From Escherichia coli (GTDB lineage Bacteria > Pseudomonadota > Gammaproteobacteria > Enterobacterales > Enterobacteriaceae), in NCBI RefSeq assembly GCF_017348835.2, contig NZ_CP071375.1: 64,000 nt of DNA; one strand, written 5' to 3'. The position numbers are program-made. This document shows positions 34,934 through 43,900 of the stretch, piece by piece; the stretch's first letter is position 1; each line of letters begins with the position of its first letter.

Positions 34934-37900
34934 CGAAATTAGTTGCCGATCATTTAATCGCGGCAAACCTGGCAGGGCATGATTCACATGGTATTGGCAT
35001 GATCCCAAGCTATGTGCGCTCCTGGAGTCAGGGGCATCTGCAAATTAACCATCATGCCAAAATCGTTAAAGAGGCGGGGGCGGCGGTCACGCTCGATGGC
35101 GATCGCGCATTTGGTCAGGTCGCGGCACACGAAGCGATGGCGCTGGGGATTGAGAAAGCGCATCAGCACGGTATTGCTGCCGTGGCGCTACATAACTCGC
35201 ATCATATCGGCCGTATCGGTTACTGGGCGGAGCAGTGTGCAGCGGCGGGGTTTGTCTCTATCCACTTTGTTAGCGTGGTCGGTATTCCAATGGTCGCGCC
35301 GTTCCACGGTCGCGACAGCCGCTTTGGCACCAATCCGTTCTGTGTGGTTTTCCCTCGTAAAGATAATTTCCCGCTGTTGCTTGATTACGCCACCAGCGCC
35401 ATCGCATTTGGTAAAACTCGCGTCGCCTGGCATAAAGGCGTCCCCGTGCCGCCAGGTTGCCTGATTGACGTTAACGGCGTGCCGACGACCAATCCGGCGG
35501 TAATGCAGGAGTCGCCGTTGGGGTCGCTGTTGACCTTTGCCGAACATAAAGGCTACGCCCTTGCAGCGATGTGTGAAATTCTTGGCGGGGCGCTTTCTGG
35601 CGGTAAAACGACGCATCAGGAAACGTTACAAACCAGTCCCGATGCCATTCTTAACTGCATGACCACTATCATCATCAATCCGGAACTGTTCGGCGCGCCG
35701 GATTGTAGCGCGCAGACCGAAGCCTTTGCCGAGTGGGTGAAAGCCTCGCCGCATGATGACGATAAGCCGATTTTGCTACCGGGCGAGTGGGAAGTGAACA
35801 CGCGTCGCGAACGGCAGGAGCAGGGGATTCCATTGGATGCGGGAAGCTGGCAGGCCATTTGTGATGCGGCGCGGCAGATTGGTATGCCGGAAGAGACGTT
35901 GCAGGCTTTCTGTCAGCAGTTAGCCAGCTAAAAAAAAGCCCGTCCAGTGGCGGACGGGCAAACAAGGGTAACATAGGATCAATGAGGGTTAGAGCATATG
36001 CGTCTGTCGGCAAACAGACGGGGAAATACTTGTGCTGGACGTAGCGTAAACGCCTGATCCGTTCAACGGTTCGGATTTTGTAGGCCTGATAAGACGCGGT
36101 AGCGTCGCATCAGGCATCTGTTGCCGGATGCGGCGTAAACGCCTTATCCGTTCTACGAATTACTTATAAATTACCGCAGTACCGCTTAATTTATTGTTGT
36201 TGGTGGCAGAAGTGATGCTGTATCCACTGGCACCGGCTGCCGCCGCTTTCTCAGCCAGTTTCGCTTCCAGGGCATCGAGGGTGGATGCGCCATCGGCAGA
36301 AACCACGCCGATTTTATTCATGTTCTGTGCCTGGGATGCCGTTACCGGTTCCGCGGCAAACACGCCAAATGACAGAGTTGAAAGAGCCATAGCAGCAACA
36401 ACTGTATTGATAGTTTTCATAATTAATCTCTCGCAGGTGATTTTTGTATAAGTGACGTTGTTTCGTCGATGTGATGAGTATCACGTTTTTTTACGAGAGA
36501 TAAAATCGAAGAGAATTGACCGCCTTGTTCAAATAAATTGATTGATATCTAACATACTGATAAACCATTTATTTGTTGTACTTATGGACTTGTTTTATGC
36601 AGCGTGGCAGTCACAGCAGCGTTAAAGGCACGGAATGCCACGCAAAATACAAATTATACTCGCTATGCATCTCGCCAGTTGTAGTTAACGTAACTGGCTG
36701 TCTTTCGAACCTCTGCGATTATATCCTGTATAAGCTGGTTTTTGTAAATCTTTCTCCTGCTGACAATGAATGCATAAGCGCACGCCAGGAATGGCTTCCC
36801 GACGGGCTTGCGGGATGGGGGCACCGCACTCTTCACATTCATACAGGCTTTCGCCACGCGGAATTTCACCCCGAGCGCGGGCAATCGCATCTTCAATTGT
36901 ACTGTTGATCTGTTCGTTGACGGCGTCATCGTTAGCCCAACCGGATGCCATATCGTCCTCCCCATATCAATACTTGTACAGTTAAGTGTAGCTAATATAG
37001 GGACGAACTCGGGCAGTTCAAGCATCAGATCTCCGACCATTCCCGCAGCAGATTATGATAAAGATTAAGCAGCGACAGGATCTCTTCACTTTCGCCGTAG
37101 CGGCTTTTCAGCGACTGAATATTGTTGTCCAGTTCAAACAGCATGACGCGCTTTTTATCATCGCGGATCATCGACTGGATCCACATAAATGATGCCACTC
37201 GTACGCCGCGGGTTACGGGTGTCACGCAATGCAGGCTGCTGGAGGGATACAACACGAGATCACCTGCCGGGAGTTTTACCCGATGTTGTCCGAAGGTGTC
37301 ATTAACGACCAGTTCGCCGCCGTCGTAGCTTTCTGGATCGCTCAAAAACAGCGTGGCAGAAAGGTCAGTGCGCATCCAGCCGTTTTGCGGGTGACTGCGT
37401 ACTGCACCATCCACATGAAAACCATAGGTTTCATTGTTCTGATAGCGATTAAACAGCGGCGTGGAAAGCGTACGCGGCAAGGCCGCGGCAAAGAACAAAG
37501 CATGTTGGTTAACCGCGTTCAGCACCTCATTTTGCAGGGCGGCGTATAACGTGCTGCGGGTGTCTACCTGTTGATTGTTCTTAACTTGCGCACCTTGTGC
37601 GCCAGTGGTGACGCGTCCATCCACCCATTCGGCTTGTTCCAGTTGTTCGCGAAAACGAGCGACGTCCTGTGGCGATAGCACGCCGGGAATGTGGTACATC
37701 ATACAAGTTCTCCAAAAAGTGGGGCCTGCGCCCCACATCTCAATCAGAAATGCATATTGGCCGTGAGCAAGAAGGTTCTTGGCTCGCCCGGGTGATAACG
37801 GTAGCCGCTCTTGTTGATTGAGGCGACGTAATCGGTATCAAACAGGTTGTAGACGTTTAGCTGGAAGTCGAGATTGCGATTAACCCGATACCCCAGTTTG

Positions 37901-40900: not shown

Positions 40901-43900
40901 CAATACACCAGACCATCATTTCGAGGGGAAGACGGCGCTTGCGTAGCGTTACAGTACCTGATTCGGCAAGGCAACGAGAGATGAGTTCGGGGTCGAGGTA
41001 ATCTCCCAGAGAAGTCAGTGGGTTACGCAGAGAATCGTAACGGGATACCAGATCAAGAGCCTGTCCAATGTGCATAAAAAAATCCGGAAACGAGTGAGCG
41101 TTTCCGGATTCTTACACAGCCACTGGATCGGTCAACTGATCCTTAACTGATCGGCATTACCCACGCCGGGGACGTTTTTGAGCGCGTCGGTAAGGTTGGT
41201 TGCGCCCTGATCTTTAATCACTTGTTCAGAAATCACCGTCATCGTGCGGGTAGTATCCGCTACCGGACGCGAGAATTTCGGATCGGCAGATTGTTGTGGC
41301 GCATAAAGCGAAGGCGTTGATGCTTCGACAACCAGCGTGTCATCCGCGTTAGTTTGCCCTTCGGCAGCGAGTGCCTGAGCCACAGGCGTGATGCCAATAC
41401 AAAGACCGGCAAAGAACGTGAGCGAATGAAATTGTCTGGCAGGGAAATTGCGATTGTTTTCCATTTTGCAGGTGACTTTTTCTTATATGTTGAAATTTTC
41501 ACTGCCACGAGAAAGCCTCTCTGCGGATGCGATGCCGCTGTTAATCTCGTGATAGCGTTCGTGCAAGTGATAATAGTTTTGATAAGCATTATCACTTGGC
41601 GCGATTTTCTATCACCCATTGCGCGAAAAAGAAATACATTTATTTACATTGCGTTCATATTTGATGTTTTTTGATTACAAAACAGGCGAAAACTGCATCC
41701 AGAGGCGAATGCAGTTACGTTGGTGGGGTTATTTGTAGATGGTTGCAGTACCGAACATCTGGTCATTTCCGCCTGCGGAATTAATGACATAACCTTTCGC
41801 GCCTTGCTCGCGCGCTTTTTCTGCCAGTTTATCCTCCAGATCGCTTAGGTTTGATGCGCCAGTTGCCGAAACGGTACCGGCGGGCCGTAGCTGACCGCTG
41901 TCCAGGTTACTCATCGGTTGCGCGGCATAAGCCGTGAGAGAGATTCCGCTCAGGACGGTGGCAATCAGTAGTGTGAGGCACTTTTTCATAATGGCATCCT
42001 CATAAATACAACGGGTAGTGCCTGATAAGTGTAGGTCGCTTGGGCGATGAAAATGACGCAAAAAATTGACAGAGGTACGCTTATTTTTTGAACGATATAT
42101 TTTTACAAAATAAGACAAATCAATGACATGCATAATGCTGATTTTTATGATGAATTGCCATAAACCATAGCCATGTTAAGGTTTTGGGGAATGATAAACG
42201 CAGCCAGATATTTACCCTGTCGCGTTATGCGGGTATCTTACGCCGCTGCTTAAAGGAGAATGCTATGTCCGCCCAGAAACCGGGGTTGCATCCGCGCAAC
42301 CGTCATCACAGCCGCTACGATCTCGCCACGCTTTGTCAGGTCAATCCTGAACTCAAGCAATTCCTCACGCTTACACCCGCCGGGGAGCAAAGCGTAGACT
42401 TTGCCAATCCGCTGGCGGTGAAGGCGCTCAATAAGGCGTTGCTGGCCCATTTTTACGCCGTAGCGAACTGGGATATCCCCGACGGTTTTCTCTGCCCGCC
42501 AGTACCGGGCCGGGCGGATTATATTCATCACCTTGCCGATTTACTGGCTGAAGCAAGCGGAACAATTCCAGCTAATGCCAGCATTCTGGATATCGGCGTT
42601 GGTGCGAACTGTATTTATCCGCTGATTGGCGTACATGAATATGGCTGGCGTTTTACCGGTAGTGAAACCAGCAGCCAGGCGTTAAGCAGTGCGCAGGCGA
42701 TCATCAGTGCTAATCCGGGGCTTAACCGCGCCATTCGTCTGCGTCGGCAAAAAGAGAGTGGGGCGATTTTTAACGGCATCATCCATAAAAACGAGCAATA
42801 CGACGCGACCTTGTGTAACCCGCCATTCCACGATTCCGCTGCTGCGGCACGGGCAGGTAGCGAGCGTAAACGCCGTAATCTGGGGCTGAACAAAGACGAT
42901 GCACTGAACTTTGGTGGCCAGCAACAGGAGTTGTGGTGTGAAGGCGGTGAAGTCACCTTTATCAAAAAGATGATTGAAGAGAGCAAAGGCTTCGCGAAGC
43001 AGGTGATGTGGTTTACCTCGCTGGTATCTCGTGGTGAAAACTTACCGCCGTTGTATCGTGCTCTGACGGACGTGGGCGCGGTGAAGGTGGTTAAAAAAGA
43101 GATGGCCCAGGGGCAAAAGCAGAGTCGCTTTATTGCCTGGACCTTTATGAACGACGAGCAGCGCCGCCGTTTTGTCAATCGCCAGCGTTAAAGCGTTGGC
43201 TCCCCCGGCGGCAGCGGTTCAGCCGGGGGCGCGCCCGGAGCAGGCAGCACCTGATAAGTCTGCACTGGCGCGCGAACGCCCGCCAGGTCGAAATGTTTTT
43301 TCACCTGGCTGTCGAGGGCAAAGCGTACCGTCCACTGTTTGAGCGGCAGCGTAGTGAACGAAACACGCAGTGTAAACGCGGTATTGCTTAAGCCGACAAT
43401 CCCGGCAAAATTCGGTTCACCAATAATCAGCCCGCGAATTTCTTCGTTTTCCATTAATTCCGCTACCGCATCTTTCAGTGCCTGATTGGCTTTATCAGCA
43501 TCTTCATGGCGATCAACATCGTAGTTTGCCACTACCGAACCAATGCCGCGGACAAAGTTGGCAAAGGTGGTAATCGAAGACCACGGAATGATGTGGTACG
43601 CCCCGGTATCCTGGCGCACGCCCACGGAGCGAATCGACATCCGTTCCACAGTGCCGGTCAACGGCCCGATAGTCACCAAATCTCCAGTGTTCATGCCGTT
43701 TTCAAACTGAATAAATACCCCGGTGATAATATCTTTCACCAGCGTTTGCGAACCAAACGAGATAGCCAGACCTAATGCCCCGGCACCTGCCAGCAATGGC
43801 GCGATATTGACGCCGATTTCCGACAACACAATCATGATGGTGATGGTACTGATAATCACCGCCAGCGCGTTACGGAACAGCGTCAGCAGGGTACGCGTAC

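Follow-up and report, generated by a model that had tools for sequence, protein, structure and literature searches.

A complete IS4 element at a recurrently used site interrupts fiu in an Escherichia coli genome, with a predicted effect on ybiX

Structure of the interrupted fiu locus

We analyzed a 64,000-nucleotide stretch of an Escherichia coli chromosome (hereafter the window; contig NZ_CP071375.1 of assembly GCF_017348835.2), in which fiu, encoding a TonB-dependent catecholate receptor, is interrupted by a complete copy of the insertion sequence (IS) IS4. Coordinates are those of the window, and fiu, IS4 and the neighbouring gene ybiX are all read on the minus strand. Along this strand the genes are ordered mcbA, fiu', IS4, 'fiu, ybiX and ybiI, an arrangement identical to that of K-12 (mcbA-fiu-ybiX-ybiI) except for the insertion. 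The following features define the interrupted gene (IRL and IRR, left and right terminal inverted repeats; ORF, open reading frame):

41160..41464, minus strand: 5' fragment of fiu, 101 codons plus 2 nucleotides, comprising the signal peptide, the TonB-box region and the initial third of Plug (ORF list, translation)
41160..41171, minus strand: left copy of the target-site duplication, CCCCGGCGTGGG, a 12-bp perfect direct repeat
39734..41159, minus strand: complete IS4, exactly 1426 bp (IRL, 41142-41159; IRR, 39734-39751)
39747..41075, minus strand: IS4 transposase gene, 442 amino acids, co-directional with fiu and ybiX, annotated by RefSeq
39722..39733, minus strand: right copy of the target-site duplication, CCCCGGCGTGGG, 12 bp, which makes a weak hairpin followed by U6 together with the adjoining TGCGTTTTTT
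37744..39733, minus strand: 3' fragment of fiu, 658 codons covering the remaining Plug and the entire beta-barrel, without a start codon or signal peptide of its own

The start codon (ATG) of fiu lies at 41464, and IS4 breaks the gene after 305 nucleotides. In the 5' fragment, the Pfam Plug match is limited to positions 2-36 of the 107 of the profile, and its product, read into IS4, would be a peptide of 110 amino acids, of which 102 are native and 8 are encoded by the IS before a stop codon is reached. The 3' fragment runs from 39733 to the stop codon at 37744. When IS4 and one copy of the repeat are removed in silico, an open fiu frame of 2283 nucleotides and 760 amino acids is restored, which shares 98.55% nucleotide identity with K-12 fiu and differs from it by 6 amino acids. 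Pfam assigns residues 68-168 of the restored protein to Plug and residues 260-728 to the barrel; this architecture and the conserved mcbA-fiu-ybiX-ybiI synteny identify it as the ortholog of K-12 b0805. The restored gene carries no secondary lesions, which fits an evolutionarily recent insertion. As it stands in the window, fiu does not encode an exported 22-strand barrel with a complete plug, and since the cut falls inside the Plug domain, at residue 102, no functional TonB-dependent receptor can be made. The strain is thus without functional Fiu, in agreement with the original prediction, which had fiu split after about codon 101 and its product inactive; the break lies at codon 101/102.

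We also considered a 733-amino-acid ORF (37744-39945) as a working Fiu initiated from inside IS4. It begins within the 3' end of the transposase gene, read in another frame, its N-terminus has no signal peptide by inspection, and it contains neither the TonB box nor the first third of the plug; this candidate was rejected.

The IS4 element and its source genomes

The element begins with TAATGCCGATCAGTTAAG directly after fiu nucleotide 305 and terminates with CTTAACTGACTGGCATTA at 39734; of the 18 positions in its terminal inverted repeats, 16 match. Its length (IS4, ~1426 bp), its 18-bp imperfect inverted repeats, its single ORF (Pfam Nterm_IS4 at 6e-33 and DDE_Tnp_1 at 1e-31) and a target duplication within the 11-13 bp range (12 bp in the window, 12 or 13 bp in other carriers) all identify it as IS4. 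It has the same length as the annotated K-12 IS4 mobile element, from which it differs at 15 of 1426 positions, and the transposase differs from K-12 InsG by 4 amino acids. At window position 41092 (IS4 position 68), a C is found where K-12 and canonical IS4 have a T. This removes the TTG that the Prokaryotic Genome Annotation Pipeline (PGAP) uses elsewhere as the transposase start (448 versus 442 amino acids), and it turns a G-U pair of the canonical left-end hairpin described below into G-C, leaving this hairpin perfectly paired. Neither a second IS4 copy nor a further target motif was found within the window.

Both the first 25 kb of the window and the 7 kb around the insertion match two complete genomes, PE164 (pig, China) and F2_81 (pig), at ~100%, with 2 single-nucleotide polymorphisms (SNPs) in 10 kb relative to PE164; the next best genomes reach only about 98.2-98.5% identity. 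In PE164, RefSeq annotates two fiu pseudogene pieces on either side of an IS4 transposase, i.e., the same structure as in the window, and the F2_81 hit extends across the entire query, the feature names in the hit table being those of PE164. The fiu::IS4 allele itself is therefore already known, an ordinary pseudogene annotated by RefSeq. PE164 carries six IS4 copies in all, and the one located between raiA and bamD is identical to the copy of the window.

Recurrence of the insertion across complete genomes

We surveyed 5,426 complete E. coli genomes using a 100-nucleotide probe over the left junction and a second probe for IS4 in the opposite orientation. IS4 occupies the same fiu site in 74 of these genomes (1.4%), in the orientation of the window in 42 and reversed in 32. 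IS4 as a whole is present in 2,686 of the 5,426 genomes, in 5,498 places and with a median of one copy, so that about 1.3% of all IS4 copies are located at this one fiu nucleotide. The insertion, which the original prediction had treated as particular to this strain, is hence recurrent, and not a strain-specific accident.

Given that IS copies are sometimes misplaced in assemblies, the insertion could in principle be an artefact of assembly or be present in only part of the sequenced population. We consider this extremely improbable: beyond this general matter nothing specific pointed to an artefact, whereas the 12-bp duplications are perfect, the restored ORF is clean, and PE164 and F2_81, two complete genomes sequenced independently, share the insertion with 72 further ones.

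Flanks, elements and duplications were compared for 12 carriers and the window. In all 13, the insertion point is constant (offset 305 or 306 from the ATG, with a duplication of 12 or 13 bp), while the flanks fall into at least six haplotypes that are up to about 3% apart. The IS4 copies differ from each other by 0-7 positions, the exception being that of the window, which is 13-17 differences away from the others. A K-12-like haplotype is found in three states, empty in MG1655, with a forward IS4 in MMC-J-0105, and with a reversed one in VR50 and CE0011b. On a second, divergent haplotype, GPEC128-620 (reversed, 13 bp) differs by only 0-1 SNP from APEC16-1068 and HS13-1 (both forward, 12 bp). 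A single ancestral insertion passed on clonally is ruled out by the two orientations, by the 12-bp and 13-bp duplications, by the six or more flank haplotypes, and by the occurrence of the K-12-like haplotype both empty and with IS4 in either orientation.

A further case comes from the K-12 derivative Origami2(DE3) (NZ_CP084529.1), where fiu is truncated at the same site in a flank with 0/3050 mismatches to MG1655. The junction (L003 3051-3160) consists of a 54-bp remnant of the IS4 right end, an adjoining IS186-type end and, beyond it, nupC/mntH, located about 1.7 Mb away from fiu in MG1655. This implies an IS4 insertion in the laboratory lineage and a subsequent IS186-mediated rearrangement. 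Altogether, at least 10 independent fiu::IS4 events are found among the 15 carriers examined.

Some carriers show additional particularities. In O121 and related carriers (records H4, H5, H7, H8, H11, H15) an extra IS421 lies within the same 7-kb region, the match extending over 8.35 kb as against 7.0 kb. RMDEC465, which has IS4 in 31 places, carries it at the fiu site with a 90%-identity junction (L022 2540-2552 and 3975-3990); the left copy of the 12-bp duplication is replaced by the unrelated GGCACATTGCCG and the right copy is normal, probably because IS4 copies located at similar targets have exchanged sequence by recombination or conversion. In AR_0077 (L006 5051-6459) the fiu copy of IS4 measures 1409 bp, 17 bp being deleted, and its transposase is annotated as frameshifted; this copy is thus immobilised.

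Target-site selectivity

IS4 inserts at pseudo-palindromic targets of the form AAA-N20-TTT and duplicates 11-13 bp, a target rule that reportedly goes back to Mayaux et al. in 1984. The fiu target reads caAAAAACGT-CCCCGGCGTGGG-TGCGTTTTTTg, i.e., AAAAACGT, the 12 duplicated bases and TGCGTTTTTT, and the arms of the whole 40-bp target are AAAAACGT and CGTTTTTT. Three of four reconstructed IS4 sites, including that in fiu, fit the AAA-N20-TTT pattern. Both the fit of the fiu site and the sharing of one nucleotide by 74 genomes are those of a site-selective element, and it is this strong selectivity of IS4 that most likely accounts for the same fiu nucleotide being taken repeatedly.

Many other IS4 copies lie in the accessory gene tnpA of IS66, at a site that has the 16-mer AAAAACGTCCCCGGCG in common with the fiu site. 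IS66 tnpA is a second hot spot of IS4. At this site (e.g., in NCTC86, L017 2001-2070) the duplication is also 12 bp, and occupied copies are found on chromosomes as well as plasmids. The raiA-bamD copy of PE164 lies in AAAAAAACGG...CCGTTTT. The sequence surrounding this copy (L019 1501-2926), AAAAAAACGGCAGC...GCTGCCGTTTT, is palindromic and resembles a terminator, and the duplication of 14 bp is one base over the 11-13 bp usual for IS4.

A review mentions the "spectacular apparent insertion specificity" of some elements of subgroup IS4 (PMC2266710). A full-text literature search combining IS4, fiu and insertion returned nothing relevant, and a search for the classical IS4 target-site papers nothing useful. 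We present fiu as a recurrent IS4 hot spot that is used in both orientations, and regard this as the only mildly new point. The fiu site offers a clean natural case of IS4 selectivity, and could possibly be employed as a defined target in studies of IS4 transposition.

Expected phenotype and possible selection for Fiu loss

Fiu is one of three partly redundant catecholate receptors, along with Cir and FepA, and the effect of its loss alone on susceptibility is probably small. In E. coli BW25113, deletion of fiu alone shifts the minimal inhibitory concentration (MIC) of cefiderocol from 0.063 to 0.125 ug/ml, i.e., at most 2-fold, deletion of cirA alone leaves it unchanged, and the cirA fiu double deletion raises it 16-fold (PMC5740388). 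The microcins E492, M and H47 have several receptors, among them Fiu, with FepA the chief one for E492 (PMC6795089); the title of Patzer 2003, as cited in the same source, states that the "colicins" G, H and X are in fact these microcins. In PE164, nearly identical to the window, cirA is annotated as intact (663 amino acids). The altered susceptibility to siderophore antibiotics and colicins or microcins that had been suggested for this strain is therefore probably overstated. Its meaning for this strain is slight, with a near wild-type susceptibility predicted from the knock-out data as long as CirA is present. With fiu already lost, the double-deletion data indicate that loss of cirA is the sole remaining step to a larger effect in carriers, and fiu::IS4, found in about 1.4% of complete genomes, may merit a flag in resistance-prediction pipelines.

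The recurrence of the insertion could also reflect positive selection for the loss of Fiu, for instance as a means of evading catecholate microcins, siderophore-drug conjugates or an unknown phage. The 74 carriers come from many hosts and haplotypes, Fiu is among the receptors for the microcins named above (PMC6795089) and for cefiderocol (PMC5740388), and a ybiX/fiu intergenic mutation was seen to arise as bacteria evolved in the gut and to pass between mice housed together (PMC10340439). However, the fiu site is very close to the sequence preference of IS4, and the IS66 tnpA site with the same 16-mer is also often occupied, so that a mutational bias suffices to explain the recurrence. Moreover, the small MIC change upon loss of Fiu alone (PMC5740388) and the role of FepA as the main receptor for microcin E492 (PMC6795089) argue against such selection, and the carriers examined form many small, recent groups and not large successful clades. 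Positive selection thus seems unlikely to us.

A still more speculative extension, which we judge quite improbable, is that the sequence of fiu codons 98-108 serves as a natural landing pad for IS4, i.e., as a high-rate mutational switch, employed repeatedly by E. coli populations, that silences Fiu and, by polarity, YbiX. If this were the case, the presence of catecholate microcins, of siderophore-drug conjugates or of some unidentified phage depending on Fiu would favour the switch, the finding of 74 carriers in two orientations would be due to selection and not to mere insertion bias, and carriers would stand one step, the loss of cirA, from high-level siderophore-cephalosporin resistance.

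Predicted polarity on ybiX

The features relevant to transcription across the locus are the following:

41569..41615, minus strand: fiu promoter region, a sigma-70-like pair GTGATA-16-GATAAT (41615..41588) overlapped by a Fur-box array at 41569-41599 (promoter scan)
41108..41135, minus strand: promoter-like site of the transposase gene, TTGACC-16-TG-AAGAAT, just inside IRL (consensus scan only)
41078..41113, minus strand: left-end hairpin with a 15-bp stem and U7, between IRL and the transposase ATG, a predicted read-in terminator (fold, direct reading)
39738..39763, no strand assigned: right-end hairpin, 11-bp stem over IRR and the transposase stop codon (terminator scan, fold)
37719..37736, minus strand: fiu-ybiX spacer hairpin, GTGGGGC-GCAG-GCCCCAC and T5, immediately ahead of the ybiX ribosome-binding site (scan)
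37025..37702, minus strand: ybiX, intact, 225 amino acids, a PKHD-type 2-oxoglutarate (2OG)/Fe(II) hydroxylase, starting 41 nucleotides after the fiu stop codon

The fiu promoter region shares 98% identity with K-12 in the alignment, and its overlap with a Fur box is retained; the best match of the array to the Fur-box consensus is 14/19, versus 15/19 in K-12, because of a single C/T polymorphism. YbiX is identical to its K-12 counterpart at 223 of 225 residues and has the Pfam domains 2OG-FeII_Oxy_3 (PF13640) and PKHD_C (PF18331), as expected of a hydroxylase of this type. It follows fiu in the same orientation across a 41-nucleotide gap, in which the terminator-like spacer hairpin is found (-19 kcal/mol, z-score -3.65), a sequence also present in other strains. 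Both the Fur-box promoter and the position of ybiX downstream of fiu had been foreseen in the original prediction and are confirmed here. Fiu-ybiX has been classed as a Fur-repressed or Fur-target operon (PMC4676285).

Transcripts from the fiu promoter would enter IS4 at its left end, where they would encounter, 47-82 nucleotides inside the element, the predicted hairpin terminator. On the fiu sense strand this structure consists of the stem AAGAAUCCGGAAACG / CGUUUCCGGAUUUUU and of U7 directly before the transposase ATG, and its RNA fold is stable (centroid -20.1 kcal/mol, z-score -4.2). Beyond the premature stop codon, the RNA would be untranslated and hence open to Rho. At the other end, neither promoter scan nor visual inspection revealed an outward promoter on the sense strand of the IS4 right end. 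The right-end hairpin has a T-run on the plus strand only and no U-run on the fiu sense strand, so that it is predicted to act as a read-in terminator from that side and should stop read-in where IS4 lies in the opposite orientation. Past it on the sense strand lies the weak CCCC/GGGU hairpin with U6 that the target sequence itself makes. Under this scheme, ybiX would lose most of its iron- and Fur-controlled transcription, and residual expression would stem from weak, Fur-independent sources, namely read-through from the poorly expressed transposase gene or promoters inside the 3' part of fiu. The predicted left-end terminator, the lack of a predicted outward promoter and the premature stop exposing the RNA to Rho make a loss of Fur-controlled ybiX transcription likely, and the strains with fiu::IS4 could serve as natural mutants for the question of whether YbiX depends on the fiu promoter.

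Alternatively, Fiu might be lost without meaningful polarity, ybiX being served by a promoter inside the 3' part of fiu or by read-through from the transposase promoter. The spacer hairpin, present already in wild-type DNA, suggests a partial transcriptional independence of ybiX, which may normally depend on the fiu promoter only in part. In addition, the 3' part of fiu that is retained upstream of ybiX contains a sigma-E peak obtained by systematic evolution of ligands by exponential enrichment (SELEX; PMC5493296), and a weak promoter-like site is found at 38790..38761. The transposase gene points towards ybiX and has no canonical terminator behind it on this strand, on which the IRR hairpin lacks a U-tract. 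Nevertheless, the literature treats fiu-ybiX as one Fur-regulated unit (PMC4676285), an IS between fiu and ybiX was read as lowering ybiX expression (bioRxiv 10.1101/2025.02.14.638246), and none of the alternative sources of transcription would be Fur-regulated. The hairpin with U7 just before the transposase ATG would also curb transcripts from the transposase's own promoter, and no promoter is predicted in the 41-nucleotide spacer. A separate ybiX promoter in this spacer was accordingly rejected, the SELEX peak within fiu being the sole hint of one. On balance, an absence of meaningful polarity appears doubtful to us, and we favour the loss of Fur control over ybiX. Of the earlier claim of a polar effect unless IS4 provides outward transcription, the plausibility is upheld by the predicted read-in terminator and the lack of a predicted outward promoter, while the effect itself is only inferred and is tempered by the wild-type spacer hairpin and the sigma-E peak.

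Collectively, we hold with good confidence that a complete IS4 lies in codon 102 of fiu at a target of its preferred type, that Fiu is lost and Fur control of ybiX would be mostly lost with it, that the event is recurrent, and that its phenotype is probably small. Weighing against this are the points just named, i.e., the wild-type hairpin separating fiu from ybiX, the sigma-E peak and the orientation of the transposase gene, to which are added that the polar effect and the IS4 terminator are predictions made from sequence, and that the count of independent events is drawn from 15 of the 74 carriers.

Two further observations concern the surroundings of ybiX. A promoter-like site lies at 36994-37021 on the minus strand, just past the ybiX stop codon and ahead of ybiI (36685-36951), and an RpoS-type constitutive promoter has been assigned to the ybiX-ybiI spacer from published SELEX data (PMC5493296), so that expression of ybiI should not need the fiu promoter. 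In some flank haplotypes (APEC 16-1068, L008 8480-8650; also L009, L010, L014, L015), the fiu-ybiX spacer measures 215 instead of 41 nucleotides: an element of about 174 bp resembling repetitive extragenic palindromes or bacterial interspersed mosaic elements (REP/BIME) interrupts the spacer at its hairpin, part of which is present twice.

Comparison with known systems

The closest parallels to fiu::IS4 are the classical IS4 insertions of K-12, site-specific cases in galT and the pheS,T attenuator and the native chromosomal copy, reportedly described by Klaer, Habermann and Starlinger in 1979-81 and by Mayaux in 1984. They share with the fiu insertion the length of 1426 bp, the 18-bp imperfect inverted repeats, the 442-amino-acid transposase, the 11-13-bp duplications, the reuse of one exact site in either orientation and the AAA-N20-TTT target. 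Disruption in these cases is said to be strongly polar; for fiu::IS4 polarity is predicted. Unlike in the classical cases, the target here is fiu, and the copy of the window is 15 substitutions away from the K-12 element.

With respect to the locus, the nearest case is an ISKpn8 insertion in the fiu-ybiX spacer, recovered together with cirA::IS in E. coli selected with cefiderocol; in the same study, a cirA ybiX double deletion raised the MIC (bioRxiv 10.1101/2025.02.14.638246). As in the window, an IS parts ybiX from the Fur-regulated fiu promoter, a loss of ybiX expression is proposed, and the locus is tied to the uptake of catechol cephalosporins. The two differ in that fiu remains intact in the ISKpn8 case, which was selected in the laboratory beside the loss of cirA, whereas in the window fiu is destroyed by a natural event and cirA is intact in the near-identical PE164.

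The fiu and cirA alleles of cefiderocol-resistant Enterobacterales (PMC11939791, PMC8579844, PMC5740388) resemble that of the window in having lost a catecholate receptor by truncation or IS insertion. Clinical resistance, however, mostly needs the loss of cirA and/or beta-lactamases, whereas loss of fiu alone is nearly silent in E. coli, with an MIC change of at most 2-fold.

Finally, the pairing of a Fiu-type receptor with a YbiX-type hydroxylase under Fur control has counterparts in two pairs of a TonB-dependent receptor and a 2OG/Fe(II) dioxygenase, PiuA-PiuC of Pseudomonas and Acinetobacter and CciT-CciO of Caulobacter (the latter in bioRxiv 10.1101/2024.10.16.618771). In these systems, the loss of either partner has been linked to changes in siderophore-drug susceptibility or iron homeostasis. 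PiuA-PiuC and CciT-CciO are intact, working systems, whereas the locus of the window represents a disrupted E. coli version of the pair.

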